A stretch of 34,675 bases of DNA from a virus (lineage: Duplodnaviria > Caudoviricetes): IMG/VR virus record IMGVR_UViG_3300042453_001025, positions 1 to 34,675 of that record; one strand, given 5' to 3'. The position numbers and the translations under genes are program-made. Of this stretch, positions 439 through 32,664 are shown piece by piece (the stretch's first letter is position 1; the number at the start of each line of letters is the position of its first letter). The notes beneath the pieces were generated by a model. It was not told the DNA's origin, ran no database searches, and worked only from the letters and a program-made list of their open reading frames with translations.

Positions 439-747
439 ATGAATTGCGGATGTTCAAAACACATTGGTTGTTTCGCTCCAAATCAAACCATTGATTTTGG
501 TTTGACTGCGCCATGTTCAGACGATTACGTCTTTGAAATTTGGAACGCAAATGGAACATTTACAACAATAAGCGTTGAATTGGAAACGGGCGACCCGTTA
601 ACGTTGCCAATGACATTCAACGAGAATGCGACAACAACCATCAAAATTCGTGTTCCGGATTGCGCGTCGGGGCCTGGATTTTATTATTTTACCACATCGG
701 ATGGCGCGTGTTCATGGACCGTCCATGGAATTTCGCCCGTTTGCTAA
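439..747 (+). CDS. Small Cys-rich, beta-rich putative virion protein (102 aa)
   Basis: ATG 439 (MNCGCSKHIGC...); 7 Cys; TAATG coupling to the next gene. Confidence 0.7.
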   Translation: MNCGCSKHIGCFAPNQTIDFGLTAPCSDDYVFEIWNANGTFTTISVELETGDPLTLPMTFNENATTTIKIRVPDCASGPGFYYFTTSDGACSWTVHGISPVC

Positions 748-1166
748 TGGAAAAAATTCGAAAAGTATTGAACGAATTGACCGGGTTTGGAATGGGAATC
801 ATGACCGGTTTGGGTTTGGCGATATTCACCGAACATGGCGACATGTTCAAACAAGTGATGTTGGCCGGCCTGGTTGGCATGGGCGCCGGAGCGATGACGA
901 TATTCATTGATTTTATCATTCAGCCGGGCCAAATTTTCGGGTTTTGGACCTGGTTTTTGGAACGTGTTGTCAATCACCCGAAAAATCCATTAAAGTTTTT
1001 GTATAAACCAATGGGTGGTTGTTTGTATTGTATGAATACGTGGGTAGCGTTTGGAATTTATACGTTGGTCGCATTGAACACCGGGTTGACTTGGTGGTTG
1101 ATTCTGCCATCCGCCGCCATCGCCCATGTGGCCGTTTCGATATTGGAACCAATTGTGAACGGGTGA
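747..1166 (+). CDS. Multi-pass membrane protein with CxxC (DUF1360-like)
   Basis: ATG 747 overlaps the upstream TAA; about 4 hydrophobic segments; KPMGGCLYCMNTW precedes a TM helix. Family assigned from recalled motif. Confidence 0.65.
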   Translation: MEKIRKVLNELTGFGMGIMTGLGLAIFTEHGDMFKQVMLAGLVGMGAGAMTIFIDFIIQPGQIFGFWTWFLERVVNHPKNPLKFLYKPMGGCLYCMNTWVAFGIYTLVALNTGLTWWLILPSAAIAHVAVSILEPIVNG

Positions 1167-4030: not shown

Positions 4031-4409
4031 CCCCTTAGATGTCCAAACCGCCATCAAAAGAAAATTCCGAACCATCCGCAATTTCTGCGAATCATCCGGA
4101 ATCAAATATCACGTCATGACCAATGCCATCACCGGGCGTTTGTCATCGCCCCGTTCTCAAGATGTGTTGAACAAAGCCAAACAACAAATCGCCGAATGTG
4201 AATTGTTGCCATGTGTTTGGTGTATTGACCAGGAACAACGGGAATTTGTGAAAAACGGTGTGAAAAACAGGTTTGGAACCTTGCAAAACTTTTGCAAAAG
4301 CCACCCGGAATTCACGTTGACTTTTGTCCACAACGTCATTGCCGGAAAACGCAAACGAGTTGATGACCGGGTGTTGGCATTGATTGAAATATTGAATGAC
4401 CATGAATGA
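3996..4409 (+). CDS. DNA-binding protein with two tandem HTH-like repeats
   Basis: Internal duplication: IKRKFRTIRNFCESSGIKYHVMTNAITGR vs VKNRFGTLQNFCKSHPEFTLTFVHNVIAGKR. Start uncertain (3996 or 4008). Confidence 0.65.
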   Translation: MTETMTPNQWVDPLDVQTAIKRKFRTIRNFCESSGIKYHVMTNAITGRLSSPRSQDVLNKAKQQIAECELLPCVWCIDQEQREFVKNGVKNRFGTLQNFCKSHPEFTLTFVHNVIAGKRKRVDDRVLALIEILNDHE

Positions 4410-5208
4410 ACCAAAAAAATTTCGTCATGGTTCATTGTTTTCAGGAATTGGCGGATTCGATTTGGCCGCAGAATGGATGAATTGGGAAAACGTTTTCCAT
4501 TGTGAATGGAATCCATTTGGCCAACGCGTTTTGAAGCATTATTGGCCAAACGCCGAATCATTTGACGATATAACAAAAACCGATTTTTCAAAATATTATG
4601 GAACAATTGACATTATTTCCGGCGGATTCCCTTGTCAACCCTATTCAGCCGCAGGCAAACGACTTGGAAAAGAGGATGAACGCCATTTGTGGCCGCACAT
4701 GTTGCGAGCGATTGCAGAAATTGCCCCAAGTTGGGTTGTGGGCGAAAACGTTCGCGGCCTTACTAATTGGAACGGGGGAATGGTATTCGACCAAGTGTGT
4801 GTTGACCTGGAAAATCTTGGATATTCGGTCGCGGCCTTTCTTATACCTGCATGCGCGACCAACGCCCCACACAAACGCGAACGAATTTGGATTGTTGCCA
4901 ACACCAATGACCAGGGATTGGAAGGGCGGTCGAACAACCGAAGCGTTGAAAAAATCGGGACGAAATCAAAACAACAGTTTGCCGGACCGATTCCATCAAC
5001 CTGGAAAAACTTCACAATTGAATCCGCGATTTGTGGCCGAAATGATGGGATTCCCACCGAATTGGACGGAATTACCGTTTCGAAATGGCGAATTGAATCC
5101 ATCAAAGCATTTGGAAACGCCGTTTGTCCCAATGTAGTTTTGCAAATTTTCAAAACCATCGAAATGTATGAACAACAACAACAACAACAAACGGTCAAAT
5201 GGCCGTGA
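4396..5208 (+). CDS. DNA (cytosine-5) methyltransferase, alpha subunit
   Basis: Motif I FSGIGG, IV GGFPCQPYS, VI ENV, VIII HKRERIW, X FGNAV; motif IX not found in this frame. Confidence 0.93.
   Translation: MTMNEPKKFRHGSLFSGIGGFDLAAEWMNWENVFHCEWNPFGQRVLKHYWPNAESFDDITKTDFSKYYGTIDIISGGFPCQPYSAAGKRLGKEDERHLWPHMLRAIAEIAPSWVVGENVRGLTNWNGGMVFDQVCVDLENLGYSVAAFLIPACATNAPHKRERIWIVANTNDQGLEGRSNNRSVEKIGTKSKQQFAGPIPSTWKNFTIESAICGRNDGIPTELDGITVSKWRIESIKAFGNAVCPNVVLQIFKTIEMYEQQQQQQTVKWP
4598..5137 (+). CDS. Nested +1-frame beta subunit of the C5 methyltransferase (motif IX)
   Basis: 179-aa ORF wholly inside the alpha gene; LLPTPMTRDWKG and LNPRFVAEMMGFPPNWT (motif IX-like). Same arrangement as M.EcoHK31I. 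Confidence 0.8.
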   Translation: MEQLTLFPADSLVNPIQPQANDLEKRMNAICGRTCCERLQKLPQVGLWAKTFAALLIGTGEWYSTKCVLTWKILDIRSRPFLYLHARPTPHTNANEFGLLPTPMTRDWKGGRTTEALKKSGRNQNNSLPDRFHQPGKTSQLNPRFVAEMMGFPPNWTELPFRNGELNPSKHLETPFVPM

Positions 5209-13705: not shown

Positions 13706-16700
13706 ATGGCAACTGAAGTCAACAACATATTGTTCAAACTGCAAGCGGACACCGCCCAATTACGGAGCGAATTCGCAAAGTTGAACACCGGAATTGAAAA
13801 CATCCAAAAGAACACAAAGACCGCCGAATCCGGATTGAAGGGTTTGAAAACAACCATTGCCGGAGCGGCCGCCGCATTTGGCGGATTGTCAATCGCCGGG
13901 GCGTCCGTTGATTTCGCAAAAGGGGCCATCAAAGCCGTTGCGGATTATGAAGCCGTGAACATTTCATTGGAAACGTTTTTGGGTTCGGCAACCGCCGCAA
14001 AAGAATTGTTCGCAGAATTGGAACAATTCAGCATCAAAACACCGTTCACACCCGAACAGGTCAATGACGCCGCCAAATCACTTTTGGCATTTGGTGAACC
14101 GGTCGAAGGTTTACAAACCACATTGGGACGGATTGGGGACGTTGCATCCGCGACGGGAAAAGATTTCAACGAATTGGCCGTGATTTATGGAAAAGCCCGT
14201 GTTCAAGGGACGTTGTTCGCTGAAGACATCAACCAATTGACGGAGGCCGGTGTTCCGGTCATCCAATTGTTCGCGGACCAATTGGGCGTTTCCGCCGGAG
14301 AAGTCAAAAAATTGGGTTCCGAGGGGAAAATCTCATTTGCCAATTTAGAACAGGCGTTCACAACATTGACATCCGAAGGCGGACGGTTTTTCGGGTTAAC
14401 GGACAAATTAAGCCAATCAACCGCCGGTCGATTGTCCACATTGGAAGGCAATTGGACGGAATTGAAACGGACTGTTGGCGAAGGCGTTTTGCCCGTGTTT
14501 GAATTGTTGACGGACGCCGCGTTCGCCGTCATTGCCGGACTTCAAGCCATTCCATCGGTTGTTGAAGAAAACCGCCGGACATTTATTTTGTTGGCCGGTT
14601 CGGTTGGAATATATGTGGCCGCACAAAACGCCGCGTTGATTTCACAATTGCGTTATGAAATAGCATTCAAACGACTATTGATTCAAGAACAAATCGGAAC
14701 CGCCATTCAAAAATTGAAGGCGTTTTGGACCGCCGCCAATACCGTCGCGACTAATGTCGGAACCGGGGCGACTGTTGCCAATACGGTAGCAACCAGGGCC
14801 GCCGCATTGGCCACCGCCGCATGGAACGCCGCATTGAAATTGAATCCAATTGGTTTGGTCATTGCCGGATTGACCGCCGTTTTGTTGGTTTTTTCCGATT
14901 ACATTTTCGCCACCGACCAAGCCGTTGAAGCCACCGAAGAATTAAGCGCCGCACAAAAGGCAGTCGCAGACGTCAACGCGATTGCCAATGAACAAATCGC
15001 AAAAGAAACGGGAGAATTGAACGCGTTGTTCCAAGCCCTGAAGAATACCAACGCCGGTTCAGAGGAGCGGAAAAAATTGATTGATGAAATCAATGGTAAG
15101 TATGGAACCACATTGACGAACATCAAAAATGAAAAGGAATTCATTGAACAATTGGATGTTGCCTATCAAAATTTGATTAAGCAAATCAAAATCAAAGCGC
15201 AAACAGAGGCCAAACAACAAGTTTTGACGGATTTATACGCCAAACAAGCCAGGGCCCAACAAGTCGCCGCCAATAGTTATGTTGATTTGGCGAAATCTTT
15301 GGCCGCAGGAAATGAAGCCGCTCAAAAAATTTATGCGGATTTGGTTCCGTCGCAAAAGAAAATTGTCGATGATTTGTTGGCAAACAACCAGGCCGTTCAA
15401 AATCAATTGGCCGAAGCGCCTTTGCAAGTTAGCGGCGCCGCATTGGAAACGGCGCAAAATTACGCGAATTTAGCCGCGACGTTGGACCCATTAATCGCCA
15501 ACAATCCATTCGCAAAAATTACCGAAGAAGAACAAAAAGCCGTTGACGAATTCAACAAAATTCAATTTGGATTCACCGACGAACAATTGGCCGAAGCCCA
15601 AGCCAACGGACAAAAATTGTTCACCGCCTTTGATTTGTTTTTGAATCAATACGAAGAATCGTCCGCGCAAATTGAAGCCGTAAACAAAGAATTCGTGATT
15701 GACCCATTCACCGGAACAACAACGGGCAATTTGAGCAAATCACAACAAACGGCGGCAGACAATTTGAAAAAAGCCATTGCAGACCTTAAAAATAATTTAC
15801 AAAAGGAATTGGCCCGTCAACAAGTTGATTTGAAATTCCAACCGCAGTTGGCAGACGACCCGAAAACATTTCGGGAACGTTTGAATCGGATTGAAACCGA
15901 AACCGCCAAAACAATCGACCTTTTCAACCTGGAGATGGACCAACGCGAAGCCCAAGCGATAGCGGAAGGAACATACACCGAAAACGCGTTGGCATTTGCT
16001 GAATTAAGGAAAAACGGAATTTTGTTGATTCAAGGTGAAACCCAAAAGGCCATCACCCAATTGACAAATGAAGCCGAAACCGAACGAAATAATTTTTTGG
16101 CAGAAACGGACAAAATCAACGCGGATTTGAAATTACAAAGGGAATTGGACGCCATTAGGGTTTTGGAAGGTGAACGTTCAAAATTGATTGACCGATTGTC
16201 CAAAGCCCGGAACGCTCAGGAAAGAAACGAAATTCGAGTTCAATTGAATTCCAATTTGCAAGCGATTCGCGACAATAACAAAAAAGCCGAAAAATTGGAA
16301 TTGGACGCAATCACTAAAAAACGAGATGCGGCCGTTAAAAAAGAGGGGGCGACCGCCGAAGAAATCGCCGCAATCAACGCCCAAGCCGAATTGGATATTT
16401 ACAACGCCACAAAAAAATATTCGGACGCCCGAACCGCATTAAACAATGAAGAAACCGACAATTTTTTGGCGAATGAAGAAAAAAAGAAAAAAGAAGTTGA
16501 AGACGCGTTGAATGATTTAATTGACGCAACAAGGGAGGCCGCCAAACAATTCATTGATTCACAAATCACACAAACGGACGCGTTGATTGAACAACAACAA
16601 AAACGCGTTGACGCCGCCCGTGATATTGCAGAAAACGGAAACGCCGAACTTTTGCAATTGGAACAAAAACGTTTGGACGATTTGACCAAACAACGTCAAC

Positions 16701-17215
16701 GATATGTCGAAGCTCAACAAGCGTTGACATTGATTGAAATTGCCGCCAATTCAGCGTTGGCAATTGCAAAGGCCGCCGCCGCCGGGAATGGAGTGGCAAC
16801 CGCGTTGACCGTGGCCGCCGCCGTTGTGGCATTGGCCGCAGGATTTGCCCAAGCCAGGGCGCAAGCGCAAGCCGCCGCATCATTCGCGACGGGTGGATAT
16901 ACGGGTGATGGCGGAAAATTTGAACCGGCCGGTATTGTTCACCGTGGCGAATTCGTAATCACAAAAGAGAAAACACAAAAATTCCGTCCGATATTGGAAG
17001 CCATACACACCGGACGAAATCCAATGTTAGTCAAAGGTTTTTCCGAAGGTGTGATGGCCGCCAACACAAAGAATATGGAAAACAAATTGGAACGGATTGA
17101 AAAGGCCATCCGAGGCCAACGCGGATTGGAATTGTCAATTGACGAACGCGGAATCAACGGAATCGTTTCCCGTCTGCAATACAAACAAAATCGAATCAAA
17201 AACGCCGCGCGATGA
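13706..17215 (+). CDS. Tail tape measure protein
   Basis: 1169 aa, Ala-rich helical; tape-measure domain (KTPF...VIYGKARVQG...EDINQL), NPIGLVI motif, C-terminal FATGGYTGDGG..PAGIVHRGEFV. Confidence 0.95.
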   Translation: MATEVNNILFKLQADTAQLRSEFAKLNTGIENIQKNTKTAESGLKGLKTTIAGAAAAFGGLSIAGASVDFAKGAIKAVADYEAVNISLETFLGSATAAKELFAELEQFSIKTPFTPEQVNDAAKSLLAFGEPVEGLQTTLGRIGDVASATGKDFNELAVIYGKARVQGTLFAEDINQLTEAGVPVIQLFADQLGVSAGEVKKLGSEGKISFANLEQAFTTLTSEGGRFFGLTDKLSQSTAGRLSTLEGNWTELKRTVGEGVLPVFELLTDAAFAVIAGLQAIPSVVEENRRTFILLAGSVGIYVAAQNAALISQLRYEIAFKRLLIQEQIGTAIQKLKAFWTAANTVATNVGTGATVANTVATRAAALATAAWNAALKLNPIGLVIAGLTAVLLVFSDYIFATDQAVEATEELSAAQKAVADVNAIANEQIAKETGELNALFQALKNTNAGSEERKKLIDEINGKYGTTLTNIKNEKEFIEQLDVAYQNLIKQIKIKAQTEAKQQVLTDLYAKQARAQQVAANSYVDLAKSLAAGNEAAQKIYADLVPSQKKIVDDLLANNQAVQNQLAEAPLQVSGAALETAQNYANLAATLDPLIANNPFAKITEEEQKAVDEFNKIQFGFTDEQLAEAQANGQKLFTAFDLFLNQYEESSAQIEAVNKEFVIDPFTGTTTGNLSKSQQTAADNLKKAIADLKNNLQKELARQQVDLKFQPQLADDPKTFRERLNRIETETAKTIDLFNLEMDQREAQAIAEGTYTENALAFAELRKNGILLIQGETQKAITQLTNEAETERNNFLAETDKINADLKLQRELDAIRVLEGERSKLIDRLSKARNAQERNEIRVQLNSNLQAIRDNNKKAEKLELDAITKKRDAAVKKEGATAEEIAAINAQAELDIYNATKKYSDARTALNNEETDNFLANEEKKKKEVEDALNDLIDATREAAKQFIDSQITQTDALIEQQQKRVDAARDIAENGNAELLQLEQKRLDDLTKQRQRYVEAQQALTLIEIAANSALAIAKAAAAGNGVATALTVAAAVVALAAGFAQARAQAQAAASFATGGYTGDGGKFEPAGIVHRGEFVITKEKTQKFRPILEAIHTGRNPMLVKGFSEGVMAANTKNMENKLERIEKAIRGQRGLELSIDERGINGIVSRLQYKQNRIKNAAR

Positions 17216-19014
17216 AATCACCCATTGTCATCAAATTAAACGGAACCGTCATCAATGGTCGAATTGATGGCGTTGAACAATTCAACATCACATGGCGTGA
17301 AAACGATGACGATGGCGGATTGGCAAAGTCATATTCAACCGAATTGCGATTTTACGATGACGGTTATTCAATTTTGAAAACAGTTTTGATTGACAACCCA
17401 AACGGATTTGTGAACGAGGTTGATGTTCAAATTTTTGATGAATGTTGTGGACGTTTGGTGTTTGACGGTTTTATTTCTGGAAATTCAATTGATTGGTGTG
17501 AACCTGAATGTTGGATTTCTGCAAGTGTGGTTGAAAAAAAAGAATTATTGAATTGCGTCAAATCAACATTAATCACCGACAATCACAATGATTTTTTGAA
17601 TCAACCACAAAAAAAACTTAGATATTGTATTGAAACGCGGCCCGACTTTATTTATTCAATACTTTTTTTGATTTATGGAATATTAAACACGGCGATTTTT
17701 TTGATTTTATTGCCTTTGTCATTGGTTGTGGTTGTGATTCAAGGAATTGCGTTGGGAGTTTGTTTGCTTTTTTGCGCCATTCCGGGCACCGGTTGCAATT
17801 CGGCAACATGTACGGGCGGAACATGGACCCATCCATCCGGGGCGTTTTCTGATATTTCCGGATGGTTCAATAATTTGCGTGACAGGATGATTCAATGTCA
17901 ATGGTATCATCCAACCGCGTTGGTTCGTGATTACATTCAAAACGTTTGTGACAAATGTGGATTGACCTTTGAATCGTCAATTTTGAATGACCCATCGTCG
18001 CCATATTACAATTTATTATTGTTGTCCGCCCCAGTTCAAAGGGGATACAAACCAAGCGAATCCGAATCACGTTTGATTGAACAAAACTATCCAATCGAAT
18101 CATTGGACACATTGATGACCCGTCATTTAAACGCAATTTTCAACGCGCGATATTGGATTGTGGGAAACAAACTGATTTTTGAACGCAAAGATTATTTTTC
18201 ATCCGCGTCAACATGGATTGACGCCGAACAATTGTTGAACGATGGCAGAATCATTGAAAATCAAATTTGTTTTTCATGGATTGATAAACCACAAAAGGCA
18301 TACGCCGTTTACAACTATTCGTTGGACGCGATTGATATGACATGCAATGAAGCCGGAAGCCGTTTTGAAGATATTGTGGAATGGAATTCGCCGCCATCAT
18401 TGCGTCAATCGGAATCATTGGAATTGACATTGTTGTCATCCATGGCCCGTTTTCGATGGGACGGAAACGGAACGGACAATTTGGAACAACAAATCTACAC
18501 CGGATTGATTTTCGCGTTTCCATTTATTCCAACAATCCAAGCGTCACGGGGACTTTTAATGATGGGACAACATACGCCATCCAATTACAAATTTTTGATT
18601 TGGGACCCTGCAAGCGGAAATGAAAACGCAAAAGTTCAAACCAATTATGACCAGGCATTCACAAACGGTCCGGTTTTTCGTCCATTTATGACGCCAGGTA
18701 GCGAAATATTTGCCGCGTTTGATTCAAACAATATTGTTCCGCCACAACATTTGTTCAATTACCCAATGTCGTTCAATGAACAAAACACGAATAATTTGTA
18801 TACGTTATTTCATTACATCGACAATCCAAGGTTGGCCGGAAATAAGACGTTCAATTTCAATTTCACATTTTCGTTTGAATGCGGCCAATTCGACGCCATT
18901 GATTTTTCAAAATCAATTCGTCTGCGAGTTGGAAACAACATTAAATTTGGAGAAATCAAAGAATTACAAATTGATTTCGTGAAACGGACCATTGGCGTTT
19001 CCGGAATCGTTTAA
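17212..19014 (+). CDS. Tail tip/hub protein with an internal hydrophobic segment
   Basis: Follows the tape measure gene; beta-rich; 16 Cys; about 45-aa hydrophobic stretch. Confidence 0.65.
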   Translation: MKSPIVIKLNGTVINGRIDGVEQFNITWRENDDDGGLAKSYSTELRFYDDGYSILKTVLIDNPNGFVNEVDVQIFDECCGRLVFDGFISGNSIDWCEPECWISASVVEKKELLNCVKSTLITDNHNDFLNQPQKKLRYCIETRPDFIYSILFLIYGILNTAIFLILLPLSLVVVVIQGIALGVCLLFCAIPGTGCNSATCTGGTWTHPSGAFSDISGWFNNLRDRMIQCQWYHPTALVRDYIQNVCDKCGLTFESSILNDPSSPYYNLLLLSAPVQRGYKPSESESRLIEQNYPIESLDTLMTRHLNAIFNARYWIVGNKLIFERKDYFSSASTWIDAEQLLNDGRIIENQICFSWIDKPQKAYAVYNYSLDAIDMTCNEAGSRFEDIVEWNSPPSLRQSESLELTLLSSMARFRWDGNGTDNLEQQIYTGLIFAFPFIPTIQASRGLLMMGQHTPSNYKFLIWDPASGNENAKVQTNYDQAFTNGPVFRPFMTPGSEIFAAFDSNNIVPPQHLFNYPMSFNEQNTNNLYTLFHYIDNPRLAGNKTFNFNFTFSFECGQFDAIDFSKSIRLRVGNNIKFGEIKELQIDFVKRTIGVSGIV

Positions 19015-19027
19015 TAAATAAAAAAAA

Positions 19028-22000
19028 ATGTCCATACATAGAATTGATATTGTTGGCGGAATACAACCAGATGGTCCAACCAATTATTTGGATTGTTGTC
19101 AAACATGCCAAACGGCAACCGTGACGTTTGAAAACGTTCACAATTCCGATTTGAACATCACCCTGTTTGATATTGACGCCATTGGTTCGGGTTTATCAAT
19201 TACCGTGACGGCCATCAATGGCGGCGCCGTTTCATGGCCTTTTTTTATTGCTCAGGGTGACACATTCACATTGGACATTGAATTTTGTTGGGACGGAGTG
19301 ACAACACCATTGACGCCGTGGGACGGAAAATTTGTTACCGTTGAACATGGAAACGATTTGTCGTGGAATTTCGCCATGGAATGCGTTGATTGGTCAACGG
19401 TTTGGACAATTCCAAACCCTGCGTTTGACTTTACAGACACACCAATTGGTTCGACCGGTTCGCAATCACTAACATTGTCAAATCCAACAATTGGACCCGT
19501 TTCAATTAGTTTAGATTTCACCGGTTGTGGTTCACCATTACCAATACAAACACCCGACCCGTTTGTTTTGGCGCCAGGCGGAACGGGTGATTTGACGTTG
19601 ACATGGACGCCGACCGATATTTCCGACGCGCTCGATTGTTTCCCGGATTATTGTGACAATCTTTTCAAAATAACAGGAAACGCCATTGAACCCGATTGTG
19701 AATGTCTTTGTTGTGAAAACATCGAAATCCAAACCGATGGAAACTATTTGAATCCAAGTTCGGGTTTTTGTGGCCCTGATTTGATTTATTTCAAATCGTC
19801 TTTTTTGGACAAAAAAACCGTTGTGTTTTCAATGAAATACGCCGTTCAGTTGGTGACGGGTTGGAATATTCAATTTAACCCGGCGTTGTTTGGTTTGGAA
19901 TGTATTTCACCTTTTGACGACGTCAACGCGCCTTTGCCGGTTGGATACTACATTCAATATTTGTCCGGAGCGCACCCCGACGGCGTGGCACAACCAATGA
20001 CATTGAATGGAGCCGGTGTTTCTGCCAACAATTTAAAAAATTGGGAAGTATTTTTCAGACCAACGGATTCATTGAATGGTCGATTCAATATTGAATTGAC
20101 GTTCTACATGATTCAAGATTTCGAACAATTTTTGACGTCATTGACTTTTGACAATGGCCAAAAATTAAAACGAAATACATTCTCAGCCATTAATGATTGG
20201 GACAATTCATTCCCGTCGGTTTACAATTCTGTAAAATCTTTACAAGGGGCGTTTTTTGTCAAAGACCCGGCCACCCTGGTTGATGGCGAAATTTTCAAAT
20301 GTGGAACCATCACATGTTCATCGTTCACCGGTAGATTTTACAACAAAGGGTTATTCAACAATCCATCCGAATTCACCAATCCAAATTTCACAATTTCCCG
20401 AAACATTGGAACGGTGACGAATTTTTCAACCATTGAAAACACAAAAGTTCAATTCACAATCAATGTGAATCCGGCGTATGGAGCCGCCCGACCCGACATT
20501 GTTTTTCACCTGTTTGATGTGACAACATTCGACAATTCCGTTGATTTTTTAACGGCAACCGATTCGTCACGGGCGTTCGTTGCATCGTTGCCGGGAACGG
20601 GTGTTGTGAACAACCATTTGGTTCGACCTGGTCAATTGGGTAGTGTTGGACCGGATTGGATGTGTTCATTGCATGTTGGAACAACGGTCAATCCGTCGTC
20701 GACCTATCGAATGGCGGCGATTGTTTATTCATCCAACGGCGAAATGGTCAATACCTTTTTGTCCGACCCTATCACAGTCACCCAGATTCCGGACCGCGAT
20801 TGTGATTGTGAATTAGATTTCGATTCAAGATGGAACCAATATTTTCAAACCCAAACGCCGGATTGTATTCGCCCGGTGGCAAAAGAAAGAATTGGACACC
20901 GTTTGTTGATTGAAGGCGGCGACTTTGAAAACTGTTTGACCAATTGGGGATTCACATTCGATAGTTGGATGGACCGTTTGTTGACGGTGACTTTGAGAAT
21001 TTACAAACGCCGCGAAGATTTTCCGAACCCAGGAAAAACCACATTTTTTCAATACGAACAACATCAATCGGTCGCGTCAAACGCGTTTCCGGGCGGATTC
21101 TCGAATCCAAATGATTTGTTCGTTCAAAAGATTGGCCCGAATGTTTTGGAAACGATTATCGCAGACCGCCGCGTTCGTTGGGAAAACAATATTTTTTCGG
21201 GTGGTCAGGTGTTGACGGCAAACACGAACAATTACATGAACCGAACACCGGCCGGACCATTGGGCGGAATTTACGCGTCCACATTGGGAATCACCGATTC
21301 ATGGATAAATGATGACATATTTTTCGAATACACGTTCACATTCAATTTTTCTGCGGATGTCAACGCGCCTTTGTTTTGGAATATCGTCAAAGCGTACCGA
21401 GTGAGTGCGATTGATTTAGAACCGATAAATTCCGGATACGAACAAAGATTGACCGACGTCACATTTGAAGGTCAAGACCCAACAACCGGCTTGTATGTTC
21501 CAATTGAAGCGCCATTTTGTTTTTCAAATTACACAACCATTCGTTTGACATACCAAGCGGACCGCGAAGGGAATTTTTTGTTTTTCATTGAACCGGAGCC
21601 ATTCGGATTGTCGGTGATTGCAGAAAACGACGAAATCGCATCACCAACGGACCAAACACAATTGACATCGCCAATCGTTTTGTCCCAGGATTCCGCATTT
21701 GACCCCGTGACGTTTACCGCCCAAGTTGTTTTGGATGGTTCGGCGTTTGAAAACAAACGTTATTTGTTTTGCGGATATTTAAGCAGTCCCGAAGCGGCCG
21801 CCATTTGTGAGTATTTTTTGAGCAATTTCAAAATTGCCGGTTCGTCATTGATTGTGTTTCCATCGCCGCAGGTTGGCGACACCATGACCGGAACATTCAA
21901 CAATGTGACCGCCGGTCGAACATTGACGATTCGTTCATCAAATGGGGACACAATTTATCCGATACCGGGGACAACATATTATTTTGAATATTCATTCAGC

Positions 22001-22210
22001 GTTCCGACAACCAGGCCGTTGGACTTCCGATTCGGGACATTGTCAACGTCGGGACCAATTGATGTGACCTTGCCAATTGGTTCAACGTCGGGTTCATTCA
22101 CAATGATTTGGGGCGCCGACACGGCCGGATTTTGGACAATGGAAACGGGGGCCGGTACGGACATGACCGGAACATTTGCGTTCAAATTAGGGAATCAATT
22201 GTGTCCATAA
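19028..22210 (+). CDS. Large tail/receptor-binding protein with N-terminal Ig/ASH-like domains
   Basis: 1060 aa, beta-rich; FDFTDTPIGSTGSQSLTLSN...LAPGG...LTWTPT is an ASH-like pattern; 25 Cys. Confidence 0.65.
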   Translation: MSIHRIDIVGGIQPDGPTNYLDCCQTCQTATVTFENVHNSDLNITLFDIDAIGSGLSITVTAINGGAVSWPFFIAQGDTFTLDIEFCWDGVTTPLTPWDGKFVTVEHGNDLSWNFAMECVDWSTVWTIPNPAFDFTDTPIGSTGSQSLTLSNPTIGPVSISLDFTGCGSPLPIQTPDPFVLAPGGTGDLTLTWTPTDISDALDCFPDYCDNLFKITGNAIEPDCECLCCENIEIQTDGNYLNPSSGFCGPDLIYFKSSFLDKKTVVFSMKYAVQLVTGWNIQFNPALFGLECISPFDDVNAPLPVGYYIQYLSGAHPDGVAQPMTLNGAGVSANNLKNWEVFFRPTDSLNGRFNIELTFYMIQDFEQFLTSLTFDNGQKLKRNTFSAINDWDNSFPSVYNSVKSLQGAFFVKDPATLVDGEIFKCGTITCSSFTGRFYNKGLFNNPSEFTNPNFTISRNIGTVTNFSTIENTKVQFTINVNPAYGAARPDIVFHLFDVTTFDNSVDFLTATDSSRAFVASLPGTGVVNNHLVRPGQLGSVGPDWMCSLHVGTTVNPSSTYRMAAIVYSSNGEMVNTFLSDPITVTQIPDRDCDCELDFDSRWNQYFQTQTPDCIRPVAKERIGHRLLIEGGDFENCLTNWGFTFDSWMDRLLTVTLRIYKRREDFPNPGKTTFFQYEQHQSVASNAFPGGFSNPNDLFVQKIGPNVLETIIADRRVRWENNIFSGGQVLTANTNNYMNRTPAGPLGGIYASTLGITDSWINDDIFFEYTFTFNFSADVNAPLFWNIVKAYRVSAIDLEPINSGYEQRLTDVTFEGQDPTTGLYVPIEAPFCFSNYTTIRLTYQADREGNFLFFIEPEPFGLSVIAENDEIASPTDQTQLTSPIVLSQDSAFDPVTFTAQVVLDGSAFENKRYLFCGYLSSPEAAAICEYFLSNFKIAGSSLIVFPSPQVGDTMTGTFNNVTAGRTLTIRSSNGDTIYPIPGTTYYFEYSFSVPTTRPLDFRFGTLSTSGPIDVTLPIGSTSGSFTMIWGADTAGFWTMETGAGTDMTGTFAFKLGNQLCP

Positions 22211-22217
22211 TTTTGAT

Positions 22218-22225
22218 TAACTTTG
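22218..22225 (+). promoter_or_regulatory. Putative -7 promoter box TAACTTTG
   Basis: TAnnTTTG in a short intergenic gap, only 4 nt before the ATG. Confidence 0.35.
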
Positions 22226-22229
22226 AAAC

Positions 22230-23300
22230 ATGGAATTGTTCGATTCTTATTCATTGGCAAACGGTCAAATCTATTGTGACCAAACCACATATTGTGAATA
22301 TGCGGACCCAAATTCGCGCGTGTTATGTACTGAAGTGCGAAACGCGTGTGGCCAATTGTGTTCCGATTTAATCGTCACAAATGGTTTGGTTTTGTGTGAT
22401 TGCAATGATTCATGGAATTGCAAATTGTGTTTGAATGACGTTCCATTTTGGATTCCATTTGAAGACGGTGACACATTTGATTTTCAATTTCAGCAATCCA
22501 ATGACATAAAGGAACCGCCATGTGAATTTGGATGGTTGCCATCGGATTTGGTTGGATTAACTGACACCGCGTTTGCTACATTTGAAATTCGCGCGTGTTG
22601 TGATGACCAGGCGTTGGAAATTACCGAGGAAATGTTTCCAATCATTGCCCCGAATCACTACGTTGGCAATTACACGTCAACGGATTATTCGGGAAATGAA
22701 TCAATCAATCCGATTCAAATGATTCGATTCAATTTGTCTGCCATTCAAACATATATGGTCGGCGCCGGATTGGACCCGTGTTTCTATTTTATATTCAATT
22801 TTTCAAATACTGCGGACTGTATTCCATTTACCGAAACAACAAACGAATTTTGTTCGGAGCCATTCAAAATGGTTCCATGTTCTAATGGAGAAAAAACACA
22901 ATTGATTGAATCGGTGTTTCCGCGAACTGATTGTTTTAATTTTTACTATGGAATGAATTTCACGGGCGGCAATGGAAACCCGTTTCAATATTCAAATCGA
23001 ATTCGTGTTCCCGGTTCGTTTGAACGAACCAATTTCACAATCACAAAAGAATTGATTGGCGCCACATTGAAAACAACGGCCGCGCAATACTGCGAAAATT
23101 GGGTTTTGCGGACAATGAATTTGCCGGAAACATTCGTCAAATTATTGGTGAACATTTTCACCGGGCGTGATGTGTACGTGAACGGGACCGAATATCAAGT
23201 CCAAGGCGAAATCGCCAAAAACAACGACATCGGTTCACAATGGTTTTTGGAAACTACATTCGAACGTTGTGAATGCGACAAATCTTTGAATTGCGAATGA
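22230..23300 (+). CDS. Cys-rich putative minor tail/virion protein
   Basis: 356 aa, 21 Cys, beta-rich, in the structural module. Confidence 0.6.
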   Translation: MELFDSYSLANGQIYCDQTTYCEYADPNSRVLCTEVRNACGQLCSDLIVTNGLVLCDCNDSWNCKLCLNDVPFWIPFEDGDTFDFQFQQSNDIKEPPCEFGWLPSDLVGLTDTAFATFEIRACCDDQALEITEEMFPIIAPNHYVGNYTSTDYSGNESINPIQMIRFNLSAIQTYMVGAGLDPCFYFIFNFSNTADCIPFTETTNEFCSEPFKMVPCSNGEKTQLIESVFPRTDCFNFYYGMNFTGGNGNPFQYSNRIRVPGSFERTNFTITKELIGATLKTTAAQYCENWVLRTMNLPETFVKLLVNIFTGRDVYVNGTEYQVQGEIAKNNDIGSQWFLETTFERCECDKSLNCE

Positions 23301-24982
23301 TTACAATTGAAAACATATCGACCGCGTTGTCAAATGACCAATATCGTCCCAAAAATTGGGAGCATTGGAATAAAGTTCGGACAACGATGTTTATTCATAC
23401 ACGAGGGAAAAACCCTGGAGAAATATTGACGTCACGTCGTCCCAATGAAGACCCGGACGTCCAAAAATATCGTTTGTCCATTTACGAACCAATCACAAAA
23501 GGTTCAATGAACCGGGCGATTGATAAATTGTTCCGGATATTCCAAAACGCCAATTTTTCCATTTCCGTTTCGGATGAATTGAACACGTATCTGACGGAAC
23601 GAAAGTTCGATGGACAATATTTTTATTCGTACATCCAAAAATTCGTTGTCCGCAGAATGATTGAAGACCCGAACGGATGGTTGGTGTGGATTCCGGTTGG
23701 TGAAGGGTTGACCAATCCGGCCGTCAAAGTAGACGCCGAACCCGTGTTGATTATGTCCGACCAAATCAAAGTGTTGGAACCTGGATTGTTGACATGGCAA
23801 TCCATGGACGAACATTCACCCGTCATGGTCAATGGCAAATCGCAAATGACCGGGTTGATTTATTACTCATTGACCGACAACCAATTTTTGAAACACACCC
23901 AGGTTGGCCAGGCAATCGACAAACGATTTGAAACCGTTGTCATTTACCAACATGATATTGGCGCCATTCCGGGCGTGATATTGGGCGGCGATTTGACGGA
24001 TGAACATTTTTTCGATTCATATTTTTCGGCCTTTGTTCCGTTCGCCAATGAAGCCATCCGCCAATATTCCGATTGGACCGCCGTGATGACAACATCCGCG
24101 TTCCCGTATCGCGAAGAAATCGCGGAAAATTGCAATGGTAAGGGTTGCCGCGATGGTATTGTCTACAATCACGAAACCGAAGAACACGAAACATGTGGCA
24201 TTTGCAAAGGAACCGGACGTGTGATTTCACGTTCGCCATTTGGCGTATTTCTGCGAGAAAAGGCCAATCCGGCGTTGGGTGTTGATGGCGACGTCAACGG
24301 CCCAATGATTCGATTTATTTCACCGGACGTTTCCATCATTGAATATTCGGGCCAGGCATGGCAAACACTTTTGAAGAAAGCCGAAGAATCATTGCATTTG
24401 AACGTAATTGATGAAAGTCAATCCGGAGTGGCCAAAATGATTGACCGCGAAGATTCATTTAGTCAGTTGACCAAAATATCGAACAACATATTTGATGAAA
24501 TCATTTTCAAATCATTGTTGTTCATTGAAAAATATCGGAACGTCGTTCAACCCATGAATCCGGTCATCACCAAACCGATTTCGTTTTCAATGAAGACCGA
24601 AGACGATTTGATTGATGAATTGAACAAATTGACGGACAAAAACGCGCCAATTGCGTTTCTCGTTGAATCGACAAAAGATTTGGCCCGGAAACGTTTTTCG
24701 GGAAACAAGTCCGTTTCGCGAATGGTCGAAGTGTTGGTCAGTTATGACCCTATTTTCCATTTGAACACCAAAGACAAACAAATGTTGTTGGCGGCCGGTT
24801 CCATCAAAAAAGACGATTTGATTCGCTCGTTGTTTGCCTACAAAACGTTGACCGGAATCACCGCAGAATTCGGAACGGAATTTTTGGAAAAACCATTGTC
24901 GGAAATATTCGCCGAATTGGACCGCAGAATTCAACCGACCATTGATTCGTACATCACCACCCAATTGATTCAAACCACCTAA
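23297..24982 (+). CDS. Portal protein with an inserted zinc-finger-like segment
   Basis: About 561 aa, directly before MuF/scaffold/capsid; SQSGVAKMIDR motif; CNGKGCRDG...CGICKGTG insert. Confidence 0.78.
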   Translation: MITIENISTALSNDQYRPKNWEHWNKVRTTMFIHTRGKNPGEILTSRRPNEDPDVQKYRLSIYEPITKGSMNRAIDKLFRIFQNANFSISVSDELNTYLTERKFDGQYFYSYIQKFVVRRMIEDPNGWLVWIPVGEGLTNPAVKVDAEPVLIMSDQIKVLEPGLLTWQSMDEHSPVMVNGKSQMTGLIYYSLTDNQFLKHTQVGQAIDKRFETVVIYQHDIGAIPGVILGGDLTDEHFFDSYFSAFVPFANEAIRQYSDWTAVMTTSAFPYREEIAENCNGKGCRDGIVYNHETEEHETCGICKGTGRVISRSPFGVFLREKANPALGVDGDVNGPMIRFISPDVSIIEYSGQAWQTLLKKAEESLHLNVIDESQSGVAKMIDREDSFSQLTKISNNIFDEIIFKSLLFIEKYRNVVQPMNPVITKPISFSMKTEDDLIDELNKLTDKNAPIAFLVESTKDLARKRFSGNKSVSRMVEVLVSYDPIFHLNTKDKQMLLAAGSIKKDDLIRSLFAYKTLTGITAEFGTEFLEKPLSEIFAELDRRIQPTIDSYITTQLIQTT

Positions 24983-26748
24983 TGGAATTTGGCGACAACG
25001 TCATTGAAATCATTCGCAAACAAGACCGCACCGTTTCCGCCGCCAATCAAACGTTCTTTGATTCATTACCGGCAACGGAACAACGGATTTTTGCCGCAGT
25101 ATCAAAACACGTCCAAAAGTTTTCGTCCGATGGCGAAAAATTCGTGTTTGATGACGGGAATGTGTTATTGACCAACCAGGTTGAACGAATCATTTTGGAC
25201 GCCCTACAATCGTCCAAATATCCATCCGACGTCAACGGATTTTTGCGGAATTTCGAAACGTTGAAACAATACAATTTCGACATCCATGGCAATGTCAATG
25301 ATTTGTCGCCGGAGCAATTGGGCGAATTGATTAATCCAATCCAACGCGGAACGGTTGAACAAACATTGCAGTCATTGACGGGTTCGGGTGTTTCAACCAA
25401 TTTCATCGAACCAATCCGGACGGGAATTTATCAAAACATTGTCGCCGGTTCAACCAAAGCGGATTTGGAGGCGTATTTACGGCGCTACATTTTGGGGAAT
25501 CCGGATGTGGATGGTTTGTTGTCGCGATATGTCAAACAAGTAAGCCGGGACGCCCTGAATCAATTCGATGGCCAGGTGAACGCGAAGATTGCGAACGAAT
25601 TCGGATTGGATGCCTATCGATACGTCGGTTCGTTGATTGAAGATTCACGGCCGCAATGTCGGCGATGGGTTGCCATGGGTGTGATTCAAACAAAGGATTT
25701 GCCGACGGAAATTGCCTGGATGAATGCGAATGGAACCGGAGCGATTCCGGGAACATCGCCCGAAACGTTTTCCATTTACCGGGGCGGATACAATTGTCGC
25801 CATTCGGCCATTCCATTCAAGTTGACCAAATCACAACGGGAACGATTGAACATGGAGCCGGCAGAAGTCGCGCCCGTGAAAATTGAACAACAAATCAACG
25901 AGGTTGAAAAGGAGGTTGCAAAGGTTGAAAAGCAAACAACCACCGCGACCAAACAAAAGGAAATTAATCCGGAAATATTTTTATCGACACAATCAAAATC
26001 AACGGTTGACCAATTCAATGAAATTGCCGCCAATGCCAATGGTATCATTGAAACAATAAATGCCAAAGGAACATTTGTGACATTGCGAAAACCGTCGGAA
26101 TGTACGGGACCAGGAACCAAAAAATTTGCCGAAGCAACCGGAAAAAAATTGACTTTGCCGACATATCAAATTGGAACGATTTCCACCAATTCGGGCGGCA
26201 ATTGCGCGACCAATAATTCATATTTGAATATTAAGATTGGCAAAGGGGAAAAAATAATTTTTAAAAAATACAATATTGAATCAACCGAAGATTGGTTGAA
26301 TCAACACGCGGAAAAATATGGATATAAAATTCGCGAAAGTGGCAATAAAAAATTGTTGACGCGTGACGTTGCGCGAGGTTATCAAATCGCCGGTGAATTT
26401 CAAAATGGAAAATTTAAACCATGGACCATTTCAACCATTGCAAGTGATGTTGACCAAAACATCGCGCCAACCATTACACATGAATTGGGACACGCCATCC
26501 AAAACGCTAATGATTCAAGAGCCGCCGAAATCATGTTGTCATTGTTGAATAAAAAAGGATTAAAGTTGTCGGATGCGCCTACATTGTATGGTCAAACAAA
26601 CAAACAAGAATTTTGGACTGAATCATTCACATCGTATGTGTATGCAAATGATTTTTTGAAGACATCACATCCAAAGGTTTTTGAATTCGTCGAAGATTAT
26701 TTGAAGGCCATGAAAATTGATATTAACACCGTAAAAATTGCCAAATGA
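24982..26748 (+). CDS. MuF/SPP1 gp7-like minor head protein fused to a HExxH metallopeptidase-like domain
   Basis: YRYVGSLIEDSRPQC...GGYNCRH (MuF); C-terminal THELGHAI and YGQTNKQEFWTESF. Confidence 0.82.
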   Translation: MEFGDNVIEIIRKQDRTVSAANQTFFDSLPATEQRIFAAVSKHVQKFSSDGEKFVFDDGNVLLTNQVERIILDALQSSKYPSDVNGFLRNFETLKQYNFDIHGNVNDLSPEQLGELINPIQRGTVEQTLQSLTGSGVSTNFIEPIRTGIYQNIVAGSTKADLEAYLRRYILGNPDVDGLLSRYVKQVSRDALNQFDGQVNAKIANEFGLDAYRYVGSLIEDSRPQCRRWVAMGVIQTKDLPTEIAWMNANGTGAIPGTSPETFSIYRGGYNCRHSAIPFKLTKSQRERLNMEPAEVAPVKIEQQINEVEKEVAKVEKQTTTATKQKEINPEIFLSTQSKSTVDQFNEIAANANGIIETINAKGTFVTLRKPSECTGPGTKKFAEATGKKLTLPTYQIGTISTNSGGNCATNNSYLNIKIGKGEKIIFKKYNIESTEDWLNQHAEKYGYKIRESGNKKLLTRDVARGYQIAGEFQNGKFKPWTISTIASDVDQNIAPTITHELGHAIQNANDSRAAEIMLSLLNKKGLKLSDAPTLYGQTNKQEFWTESFTSYVYANDFLKTSHPKVFEFVEDYLKAMKIDINTVKIAK

Positions 26749-26936
26749 CAATTGAACAAATGCAAAAGTTGTCGGAATTGACAACGGCGGCCGCCGAAAA
26801 AAATGACATTGCCACATTGCAGAAAATCAAAACAATCATTGACCAGGATGTCGCCGAAAATGGAATTGAATCGACGTTGGGAACCGAATGGTTTGAATCG
26901 TCATTGACCGGCGAACAATTGGCGGCATTGAAATAA
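26745..26936 (+). CDS. Small acidic protein, possible immunity partner of the MuF extension
   Basis: 63 aa, ATGA-coupled to MuF; function inferred from position. Confidence 0.55.
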   Translation: MTIEQMQKLSELTTAAAEKNDIATLQKIKTIIDQDVAENGIESTLGTEWFESSLTGEQLAALK

Positions 26937-26948
26937 ATTGTATATTTG
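26919..26948 (+). promoter_or_regulatory. Bacteroidota-type promoter for head genes
   Basis: TTG 26919-26921, 19-nt spacer, TATATTTG 26941-26948. Confidence 0.65.
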
Positions 26949-26963
26949 AACAAACATTCAGAC

Positions 26964-27269
26964 ATGAACAAAATTCGCATTCAGAACGTCAAAACCGGGA
27001 AAATTTCCGAAGTGACACAATTCGCATGGAACACGCTGAAGAAAGGCGGCAAATCGAAGTTTTACGAAATATTGAACAAACCTTCGGAGCCGGTGAAATT
27101 CAGCGCCCCAAAGTTGGCAGAAACAAAAATCGTCGAAGCCGAACCAATCATTGAAGAACCGGAAACCAATTCGGATTTGGCGTTTTTGGAGCAAGACGAA
27201 AACGAATACAGAGAATCCAACGGCGTTGAATCAAAACCCGTGAAAAAAGGCCGTAAACCCAAAAATTGA
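26964..27269 (+). CDS. Hypothetical head-module protein (101 aa)
   Basis: ATG 26964; acidic linker and basic KKGRKPK tail. Confidence 0.7.
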   Translation: MNKIRIQNVKTGKISEVTQFAWNTLKKGGKSKFYEILNKPSEPVKFSAPKLAETKIVEAEPIIEEPETNSDLAFLEQDENEYRESNGVESKPVKKGRKPKN

Positions 27270-27274
27270 AATAC

Positions 27275-28114
27275 ATGACCAACATTGAAAAGTTTTTGAA
27301 AAAGATTGGTGTACCATCCGACGCCATCGCAAAGTTGAACACCGAGGCCGACGACGTCAACATTGACGAAATCGCCGGAGAATTCCAAAACATTCAACGT
27401 GATGTTTTGAAAAATAATCCGGATTTCATTGGTTCGATTCGCGGCGAAGTAAAGGGAACCGAATTGTCGAAGATTGAGCAAAAAATCAAAAAGACATTCG
27501 GTCTATCGACTGAAGACGTCAAAGACAAAAAATTCGATGACATCATTTCGGTGGCCTTTGAAAAAATGAACAAAACGGCCGGGGCCGGCGCTGAAGAATT
27601 ACAAAAACGATTGATTGAATTGACCAACGAAAACAAACGCCTGGTTGATGAAATCATTCCGCAAAAGGAAAACGAGGCCAAACAGGCCATCAAAACGTTC
27701 AAACGCGAATCGTTCATCCAATCCGCCATCGCCAAACGTTCGTTGATTATTTCGCCCGAAGTTGTGAAACCGGCCGTCCAAACATATTTGGATTCCAATT
27801 TCAATATTGACGTTGATGACAACGGGGAAATCATTGTCAAAACGAAAAACAATTTGAATCCGTTGAACAATGATGGAACAAAAATCGTTACATTTGACGA
27901 AATATTGGATGGCCATTTGACGACATTGGGTGTGATTAAACAATCCAATGGCGGACAACAAACGCCACCAAAACAAACCAATGGAGCGCCGCAGACGCCG
28001 CCATCCGGAAACGGAGCCGAACCGCCAAAATATCAATTGGCCGGAATGGCAAAGGCCCAAGCCAACGCCGCATCATTGCAGACAATGAAAGTATTCGGAA
28101 ACGAATCGAAATAA
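27275..28114 (+). CDS. Capsid scaffolding protein
   Basis: Charged coiled coil with a Pro/Gly-rich tail, directly upstream of the capsid gene. Confidence 0.78.
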   Translation: MTNIEKFLKKIGVPSDAIAKLNTEADDVNIDEIAGEFQNIQRDVLKNNPDFIGSIRGEVKGTELSKIEQKIKKTFGLSTEDVKDKKFDDIISVAFEKMNKTAGAGAEELQKRLIELTNENKRLVDEIIPQKENEAKQAIKTFKRESFIQSAIAKRSLIISPEVVKPAVQTYLDSNFNIDVDDNGEIIVKTKNNLNPLNNDGTKIVTFDEILDGHLTTLGVIKQSNGGQQTPPKQTNGAPQTPPSGNGAEPPKYQLAGMAKAQANAASLQTMKVFGNESK

Positions 28115-28291: not shown

Positions 28292-29317
28292 ATGGCATTT
28301 ACTCAAGGACTTTGTCAAAAATTGCAAACGGATTTAAATTCCGTTGCCGGAATGAACGCGCCGGCGCTGAAGCGCGACCGCGTTGGGTATTTGGACGCCC
28401 TAATGTCCGAAGAAAACCGCATGGGTTTTGAAGCGATTCCAATTCCAACAAATGGAAAATATCGCGCCGTTCAAGTGAACTACATTCAACGCGGAACGGC
28501 GGATTCGGTGAATTTAACATGTTCCGCATCATGTGATACCGACCAGGAAATTTCACCGTTGGAATCAATCGTGAACATCACCGAATGTATCGAAACAAAA
28601 GGAATGTTGTTTTCTGAAGACCAAATGAGAAAACTTTGCGAAGCGGATTCCGTTTATGTTTCCAACGTTATCATGTCGCAAATGAACGCCATCAACACGG
28701 CGTTGAATTCTCAATTGCTCGCAGAACAATCAACCAATTTCGGCAAATTCAGCGATGGAACAACCCAAAAGGATGTTCAATTGTTCGAAGCCACATCAAA
28801 CGCGCCCCGTGCGATTGCGGCCGCCCAAATCCGTCACGAATACGATTTGACCGGAGCATCCGGAGCGCCAATGATTATTGGCGGCGGAAACTTTGATTTG
28901 TACGCAAAAACCCAACAAATCGCGTGTTGTAATTCATCAACCGGAATGGATTTAAGCCGTTGGACTGACTATCGCTATTACAACGACCGTTTTGTTGACA
29001 CCGTAATTGGCGCCAACGAATTCATCGTTTTGGCCCCCGGCGCCGTTCAATTGCTCACATGGAACAAATACGTTGGTGATTACGCGAAGCGAAACGACGT
29101 GTTTGAACATGGAACAATCACCGACCCATTCACCGGGTTGACCTACGATTTGAAGGTTCACTATGACGATTGCGCGGACGCCTGGTCAATCAAACTCCAA
29201 TTGAATTGGGGATTGTTTTTCATTCCGGCCAACGCGTTTGGAACCGGCGATTTGAACGAAGGTGTGAACTACACATTCCATTTCGCTGATTGTTCAACAA
29301 TCGTTGGTTGCGACTAA
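28292..29317 (+). CDS. Major capsid protein
   Basis: 341 aa after the scaffold; strong A-rich leader; size and position fit a HK97-fold capsid protein. Confidence 0.82.
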   Translation: MAFTQGLCQKLQTDLNSVAGMNAPALKRDRVGYLDALMSEENRMGFEAIPIPTNGKYRAVQVNYIQRGTADSVNLTCSASCDTDQEISPLESIVNITECIETKGMLFSEDQMRKLCEADSVYVSNVIMSQMNAINTALNSQLLAEQSTNFGKFSDGTTQKDVQLFEATSNAPRAIAAAQIRHEYDLTGASGAPMIIGGGNFDLYAKTQQIACCNSSTGMDLSRWTDYRYYNDRFVDTVIGANEFIVLAPGAVQLLTWNKYVGDYAKRNDVFEHGTITDPFTGLTYDLKVHYDDCADAWSIKLQLNWGLFFIPANAFGTGDLNEGVNYTFHFADCSTIVGCD

Positions 29318-32651: not shown

Positions 32652-32664
32652 TAATTTAAATAAT

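Follow-up and report, generated by a model that had tools for sequence, protein, structure and literature searches.

A conserved membrane CxxC protein encoded beside cysteine-rich virion genes of a tailed phage: a candidate inward-facing thiol oxidase

Phage particles and spore coats are assembled in the reducing cytoplasm, and the route by which they acquire disulfides is described as an open question for phage Jabs and as a puzzle for the coat protein CotY. A locus near the beginning of the 34,675-nucleotide stretch of viral DNA analysed here (IMG/VR record IMGVR_UViG_3300042453_001025, in the following referred to as the window) raises the question of whether a tailed phage may supply its own catalyst for this reaction. 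A preliminary description had proposed the product of the gene at 747-1166 as a candidate thiol oxidase in the manner of DsbB and VKOR, which would serve a dedicated disulfide-forming pathway for a Cys-rich shell. The idea of such a pathway gained from the pairwise occurrence of capsid cysteines and from disulfide-linked neighbours, whereas kinship to DsbB or VKOR was not found.

The window represents a circularly permuted phage genome of ~34.5 kb in circular form, with a 149-nt end overlap containing 1 mismatch, and all of its large genes are located on the + strand. PHROGs and Pfam recognised terminase (10446, 11492), tape measure (13706), portal (23273), head-morphogenesis (24982), and amidase (31217) genes. 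Owing to the circular permutation, the gene at 747-1166 is the final gene of the late block, which starts near 10446. This position had been proposed before and is confirmed by the permutation together with a downstream terminator-like hairpin and U-run closing the late block (1213-1244, +; z -3.15; 0 of 200 shuffles as stable). A simple terminator scan did not have this hairpin among its listed sites. Upstream lie the 3' part of a late gene (1-413, +), which spans the ends of the window from 34373 and encodes 188 aa with 5 Cys in relatives, and the gene of a Cys-rich 102-aa protein (439-747, +). The phage host is likely to belong to the Bacteroidota, because one relative of the capsid protein comes from a record assigned to an Aequorivita MAG and the closest structural match of the membrane protein comes from a Bacteroides phage. 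Sites at 1285 and 2936 fit what we take to be the promoter consensus of Bacteroidota, the former (1285-1315, +) lying ahead of the early genes; this was also counted toward such a host, but 3 matches in the whole window versus 1.83 expected by chance make it a weak signal.

The open reading frame at 747-1166 (+) encodes 139 aa including the sequence GGCLYCMNTW, and its sole cysteines are C92 and C95 (C92-x-x-C95 codons at 1020-1031, +). Its start codon overlaps the stop codon of the preceding gene in the sequence TAATG, in agreement with the previously noted coupling to a Cys-rich gene, whose product contains 7 Cys in 102 aa. The start at 747 was kept because several relatives begin at the equivalent position; an alternative start at 714, adding 11 residues inside the upstream gene, was dropped for the same reason. 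In the AlphaFold model (pLDDT 83.6) helices comprise residues 2-28, 31-58, 65-75, 81-91, 93-112, and 116-138, and the CxxC sits at the start of helix 93-112, so that reading frame and model both support a membrane protein with the motif at a helix start. Of the approximately four transmembrane helices proposed earlier, the model contains four hydrophobic ones (2-28, 31-58, 93-112, and 116-138, predicted in the membrane), but the first is only weakly hydrophobic and was found in 27 of 150 family members, and the predicted family core consists of three membrane helices. Prediction of a homodimer resulted in an uninformative score of 0.02.

Loop charges provide hints to the membrane side of the motif. 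Over 150 sequences the loop 59-91 before the CxxC carries on average 5.75 K+R and 3.53 D+E, the short turns 29-35 and 113-117 carry 0.14 and 0.10 K+R, and the C-terminal end is basic. According to the positive-inside rule basic loops lie on the cytoplasmic side, and the basic loop and nearly uncharged turns thus place the CxxC on the cytoplasmic side of the host inner membrane, as predicted from sequence. The helices within residues 65-91 are amphipathic and were assigned to the cytoplasmic face in this prediction. The charge layout is common to crAss001 gp97, mycobacteriophage gp7, and Bacillus YjcA; in the Bacillus DUF1360 set the loop carries 7.7 K+R and 8.5 D+E and the turn 0.13 K+R. Virions assemble on this side, whereas DsbB and most VKORs have the opposite orientation. 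Complementation of dsbB, suggested earlier as an assay, follows a periplasmic logic and would be the wrong choice for a CxxC with this predicted cytoplasmic orientation.

A family set of 164 sequences was obtained from 16 close relatives and a profile search (222 matches at E<=0.001, 150 of the 222 listed). The CxxC, whose conservation had been named as a check, was kept in 162 of the 164, the exceptions being one fragment and one CxxS; the search profile itself contained the motif, and the conservation figures therefore are inflated and represent upper bounds. In the 150-row alignment, which has a mean column identity of 11%, only C92 (100%), C95 (99%), and G90 (99%) reach 90%, followed by W99 (88%), G61 (85%), K87 (84%), and D55 (53%). 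A Cys at position 57 is present in 45% and a His at position 127 in 35% of the family. A CxxC-x3-W/Y opening a transmembrane hairpin after a basic loop was found in 143 of the 150 rows and likewise in gp97, gp7, and YjcA. Searching bacterial genomes with patterns of the close family resulted in 28 matches, of which 0 were confirmed as relatives. A tblastn match in Bacillus phage BvP (E 9) was not confirmed by profile searches and was rejected.

The structure search against DUF1360 that had been recommended identified a remote relationship. The closest structural match was the crAss001 protein A0A385DTE3 (E 4.4e-4, TM 0.65), taken to be gp97 from its length and score, and DUF1360-named proteins occupied ranks 6-13. 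With the family profile crAss001 gp97 (139 aa, annotated as DUF1360) scored 55.6 bits and gp7 of B1 mycobacteriophages reached E 7e-6. The 139-aa protein matched phrog_781 (E 2.9e-5) and an Atlas cluster that is 42% DUF1360 (0.91). Its match to Pfam DUF1360 (PF07098) of 14.6 bits (E 0.033) is below the curated 21-bit cut-off, and 28 of the 150 family members match this model at E<=0.1 (best 1.3e-4). Against the Bacillus DUF1360 set the family reached 31 bits at best, and the hhalign result (78%, E 1.8e-5, 57 columns) is modest and was obtained with Bacillus sequences picked by their CxxC motif. These profile and fold matches, together with the lack of a match to solved structures, characterise the protein on the sequence level as a remote DUF1360 relative below the Pfam cut-off, not a full member, and not a member of the DsbB or VKOR families. 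It shares with the DUF1360/phrog_781 proteins gp97, cluster B gp7, and YjcA a transmembrane helix, a basic cytoplasmic loop, and a CxxC-x3-W opening a transmembrane hairpin. In contrast to gp7 and YjcA, it lacks the Arg-rich end of TM1, and its subfamily differs from other DUF1360 proteins in the additional N-terminal helix.

DsbB is a small helical membrane protein with a CxxC at a helix N-terminus and two Cys pairs, its cysteines being periplasmic. The phage protein is likewise small, helical, and membrane-embedded with a CxxC at a helix N-terminus, but has one Cys pair that is predicted to be cytoplasmic. Like VKOR it carries the CxxC where a membrane helix begins; it differs in its three core helices and in lacking a CXnC shuttle pair, and no match to the VKOR family or fold was among the search results listed. 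The likeness to DsbB and VKOR put forward earlier was thus not supported beyond the motif. Foldseek gave no match in the PDB at E<=0.001, the best VIA match had Z 7.3 with DsbB and VKOR absent among the best 50 matches listed, and a search of PDB sequences with the 150-row profile gave nothing at E<=10. A second cysteine pair is absent from the protein, and no conserved second pair was found across the 150-row family. No VKOR family match was obtained among the 150 members, nor was an Erv family among the 22 families listed for them; the protein is hydrophobic and multi-helix. The predicted cytoplasmic orientation of the CxxC is shared with the crenarchaeal inverted VKOR (ApVKORi), which is reported to face the cytoplasm and to be able to drive disulfide formation there (10.64898/2026.03.26.714578).

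The late shell and tail proteins, as putative substrates, are rich in Cys. The 13 presumed shell and tail proteins contain 120 Cys in 4915 aa (2.44%) versus 44 Cys in 3580 aa (1.23%) in the 22 proteins of the early genes and terminase (Fisher p 5.7e-5). The comparison excluded the tape measure and the scaffold, both with 0 Cys. The tape measure gene is followed by three genes presumed to specify the tail tip (17212-23300, +), which encode proteins of 600 aa with 16 Cys, 1060 aa with 25 Cys and Ig-like domains, and 356 aa with 21 Cys. Cys richness alone would be insufficient to deduce disulfides, because a survey of gut-phage capsids reports mostly isolated, buried, and unpaired cysteines (10.64898/2026.07.03.736451). 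The major capsid protein (28292-29317, +; 341 aa, 10 Cys) has a predicted HK97 fold (pLDDT 81.4; Foldseek E 1.9e-11 to the Douge capsid), and its cysteines come and go in pairs. Among 115 capsid relatives of >300 aa, drawn from 121, the Cys count is even in 102, in 54 of 62 after thinning at 80% identity, and in 15 of 16 at 60%; for the control residues W, H, M, Y, and F it is even in 27-37 of the 62 thinned capsids. Both C77 and C99 are present in 68 relatives, neither in 47, and a single one in 0, with 4 changes on the tree, all joint. C212 and C213 are both present in 109, absent together in 6, and single in 0. Even counts were also found for a 180-aa late protein with 8 Cys (29353-29895, +; 61 of 61 relatives) and a 268-aa late protein with an Ig-like domain and 12 Cys (29980-30786, +; 21 of 22). 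The parity fails elsewhere, namely for the proteins at 31710 (21 of 63), 439 (15 of 51), and 22230 (12 of 37), most of whose Cys are nonetheless conserved; in the first of these, a 313-aa late protein with 9 Cys (31710-32651, +), eight Cys are 92-100% conserved in 63 relatives. These patterns give good grounds for considering the virion as probably disulfide-linked. It resembles the virions of Milano, 7-7-1, Jabs, and crAss001 in its Cys-rich shell and tail proteins, although the disulfides of cross-linked virions such as Milano and crAss001 were solved, whereas here they are predicted from sequence. ASH/HYDIN-type Ig-like domains were observed in the Cys-rich late proteins at 19028-22210 and 29980-30786.

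The protein encoded directly upstream of the membrane protein (439-747) has an N-terminal C-x-C hook, and C3, C5, C11, C91, and C102 are invariant in 51 relatives. No match was found in crAss001, B1, or Milano, nor in PHROGs, Pfam, and NCBIfam. Cys hooks at the N-terminus have been described for the small proteins LP1/LP2 of Milano (PMC10491603) and ORF61/62 of Jabs (10.64898/2026.07.24.740622), which the protein resembles in hook design. It is likely to be a small virion linking protein. Cys-rich N-terminal hooks are also present in CotY/Z-type coat proteins (L226, L253, L290, and others).

The proposed co-occurrence of the family with Cys-rich capsids was supported among close relatives. Of the 80 loci harbouring the capsid gene, those in records of >=28 kb were evaluated, and 27 of these 29 records carry the family gene; the two misses, G017 and G025, do not extend as far as the place where it would lie. 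A motif scan yielded 51 loci, 49 of which carry the family. A Cys-hook gene was located within <=700 nt in 41 of these 49, and in two more by separate inspection; in some distant phages it lies downstream of the family gene. The capsid family is present in 12 of the 17 more distant or previously untested records among the 51, including 4 of the 6 complete ones, and eight capsid proteins checked in these 17 records contain 6-9 Cys each. In G041, whose capsid gene was not recognised, several late genes are Cys-rich. Co-occurrence counts in phages, as in the bacilli considered below, are not independent because relatives share gene order by descent.

The co-occurrence did not hold throughout, and homologues in Cys-poor phages, previously named as counter-evidence, were in part observed. 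In the complete 73-kb genome G033 the family gene is located among non-structural genes; the 369-aa capsid protein contains a single Cys and the major tail protein 0. The head-tail module of this genome also contains a cluster of genes (L197:4373-10836) of the glycosyltransferase, methyltransferase, and sialyltransferase-like types. In crAss001 gp97 lies outside the structural module and the capsid protein has 2 Cys in 504 aa; the tail hub protein has 11 Cys, and cryo-EM work reports disulfides between subunits in gp57, the hubs, and the rings (PMC10172136). Another redox-type gene of the same phage, gp5 (L061:2271-2468), carries the annotation of a putative ferredoxin-thioredoxin reductase; its product has 65 aa and 7 Cys. 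In B1 phages gp7 precedes the portal gene, and the capsid proteins contain 6 and 2 Cys (0.8-1.0% Cys) versus 0 in the 595-aa terminase. These phages have a two-capsid-protein layout in common with Jabs, whose virion is described as cross-linked by disulfides (10.64898/2026.07.24.740622). For Milano a disulfide network was solved (PMC10491603), and searches with the family profile and DUF1360 gave no match in Milano or Pam3. PF07098 was absent from all 10 model phages searched (T4, Chi, lambda, HK97, P22, T7, SPP1, Bxb1, P2, and phi29) at a sensitivity that detects the 747-1166 protein itself only at E 9.7e-4. The family thus is neither required for virion disulfides nor limited to Cys-rich capsids, since Milano is devoid of it and G033 and crAss001 combine it with Cys-poor capsids, but it leans toward them.

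Among 5195 ORFs a 55-aa ORF of HK97 reached E 0.0066 with the family profile. A weak scan for a CxxC before a hydrophobic stretch in six-frame ORFs of 14 phages yielded 19 rows, mostly inside longer ORFs, and matched the controls as well; the version purged of overlapping ORFs lost Milano gp4. The latter (L065:3913-4158) is an 81-aa hypothetical protein with C-P-C-C directly before a C-terminal hydrophobic helix, encoded between the virion genes and the terminase, with 92-94% identical copies in 7-7-1 and OLIVR4. It did not match the DUF1360-like profile and possibly is an analogous catalyst in the best-known disulfide-linked phages.

Bacterial relatives were collected by scanning the genome collection with a ten-residue motif that we take to be characteristic of Bacillus DUF1360; this resulted in 120 loci, coming from 11 of the collection's 64 parts, 80 of them with flanks. 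In B. spizizenii the genes cotO, cotZ (11 Cys), cotY (15 Cys), cotX, cotW, and cotV are followed by a divergent DUF1360 gene (E 1.4e-36), which by position is yjcA, and by spoVIF. In 75 of the flanked loci the motif lies in an ORF <220 aa, and 62 of these contain, within 4.5 kb of DUF1360, a CotY/Z gene (45) or a Cys-rich BMQ_0737 coat gene (17); in 38 of the 75 a CotY/Z gene lies within <=400 nt. According to published accounts, yjcA adjoins the 5' end of cotV (PMC11708026) and is under sigmaE control in the mother cell (PMC517825). Its linkage to coat genes could alternatively be due to common regulation during sporulation. CotY is reported to form disulfide-linked multimers assembled in the mother-cell cytoplasm, its authors asking how (PMC4950064). 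A table from 2012 lists yjcA in 39 of 46 spore-forming bacilli and in 0 clostridia or non-sporulators, and gives it as non-essential and as absent from two genomes having cotY/Z (PMC3533761).

Taken together, we tentatively favour the reading that the 747-1166 protein is an inward-facing thiol oxidase for disulfides of the Cys-rich shell and tail proteins, because its CxxC is conserved and caps a membrane helix, capsid cysteines occur pairwise, and disulfide-linked neighbours recur. The inward-facing CxxC would be oxidised by membrane quinone and would hand disulfides to shell proteins, either directly at the membrane or via a putative soluble shuttle. The first candidate substrate would be the hook-bearing 439-747 protein, which is built like Milano LP1 and Jabs ORF61/62. 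Menaquinone would be the presumptive electron acceptor, given a presumptive Bacteroidota host. Redox activity of the CxxC, its oxidising direction, and the quinone acceptor are putative, as is the choice between a direct and a shuttle-mediated substrate route; a thioredoxin-like partner or soluble shuttle was not found in this genome by Pfam, PHROGs, or inspection of the ORF list. Several observations speak against an oxidase. The protein has only two Cys and lacks a VKOR-like CXnC shuttle pair, the family is present along with capsids of few Cys in G033, crAss001, and B1, Milano is disulfide-linked without the family, CotY cross-links unaided, and yjcA is listed as non-essential and as lacking in two cotY/Z-bearing genomes.

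The motif also allows for roles other than oxidation. CxxC is a common metal-binding motif, and the protein may instead bind a metal or an iron-sulfur cluster and act as membrane anchor or assembly factor without catalysing disulfide formation. The third Cys at position 57 and the His at 127 in part of the family would suit such a site, D55 is the only conserved residue among the candidates for a quinone site, and linkage to virion and spore-coat genes is compatible with any assembly role. This explanation appears unlikely to us, since with two invariant Cys only a full site would need a partner, the 139-aa protein itself lacks the third Cys, and RnfA/NqrE-type chains reached Z of about 5 in the fold search, which is within noise. 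A lysis-timing or superinfection-exclusion function of the holin or antiholin type, with merely incidental Cys-rich neighbours, is distinctly improbable. It would fit a small multi-helix membrane protein encoded late in the operon, 1.6 kb past the presumed lysis genes, and the location of the gene away from structural genes in crAss001 and G033. The separate holin at 33088 that had been held against this function is plausible by hydrophobicity and position, but the label is a guess, as it has no match in Pfam, PHROGs, or NCBIfam. The 747-1166 protein in turn gave no holin match in these three databases, nor did the 150 family members, although holins are too diverse for such an absence to carry weight; an invariant CxxC is not known as a holin feature. 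Cellular homologues in spore-coat clusters and the B1 gene preceding the portal gene likewise argue against lysis.

A redox-active protein working as reductase or isomerase, which keeps virion cysteines reduced or reshuffles them while disulfides arise by air oxidation at lysis, would have the same motif, topology, and context as an oxidase. The cytoplasm already contains thioredoxin and glutaredoxin reductases, and an extra reductant thus is less needed there than an oxidant. On the other side, the disulfide network of Milano exists without the family, and spontaneous oxidation is documented for CotY, which is reported to form disulfides unaided in the E. coli cytoplasm (PMC4950064), and was raised for Jabs, whose authors note that contact with air during or following lysis might be enough for oxidation and treat a catalyst as an open question (10.64898/2026.07.24.740622). 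We consider this alternative quite unlikely.

If the oxidase reading is extended to the relatives, DUF1360 and its kin would form a third class of quinone-coupled membrane thiol oxidases, facing the cytoplasm, unrelated to DsbB and VKOR, and stapling shells by disulfides in a reducing compartment. Its users would be tailed phages (this lineage, crAss001-type crassviruses, and cluster B actinophages) and sporulating bacilli (YjcA). Such a class is possible, if rather doubtful. Poxviruses, with the E10-A2.5-G4 pathway, and baculoviruses and NCLDVs, with Erv-type pathways, employ soluble FAD-dependent Erv oxidases and thioredoxin-like shuttles. The route proposed here would share with them the concept of virus-coded formation of virion disulfides in a reducing compartment, in contrast to which neither a soluble FAD-dependent Erv oxidase nor a thioredoxin-like shuttle gene was found in this genome. 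In the literature searched, with subscription journals mostly outside the search, there was no function on record for DUF1360 and no phage-encoded membrane CxxC protein or sulfhydryl oxidase for virion disulfides. The present analysis puts forward one candidate family with three tractable models, namely yjcA of B. subtilis, gp7 of mycobacteriophage B1, and gp97 of crAss001. If true, it would provide a function for a DUF, a tailed-phage counterpart to the poxvirus pathway, and a tool of 100-140 aa for disulfide formation in the cytoplasm. If the oxidase reading is wrong, a conserved membrane CxxC protein encoded repeatedly beside Cys-rich shell genes would still be left.

Several further features of the genome were observed. 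The region 33088-33932 (+) encodes a hydrophobic Cys-free 143-aa protein, the holin candidate, and a 138-aa lipoprotein-like protein with a weak spanin match. The latter (33516-33932; E 0.003) has a lipoprotein-like N-terminus and a C-terminal hydrophobic segment, which is the design of one-piece spanins, and possibly belongs to these. A repressor-like gene (32632-32940; phrog_876, E 3e-6) overlaps the end of a late gene and is variable among relatives, and a methyltransferase-like ORF (4396-5208) is overlapped by a long ORF in another frame (4598-5137). The MuF-like head-morphogenesis protein encoded at 24982-26748 ends in a domain resembling zinc metallopeptidases (Pfam ATLF, E 8e-7); relatives vary in this region, G025 having genes for 655 aa and 567 aa. 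The gene order within 13706-28114 is unusual, as tape measure and tail-tip genes follow the terminase and precede both the portal and the head genes.
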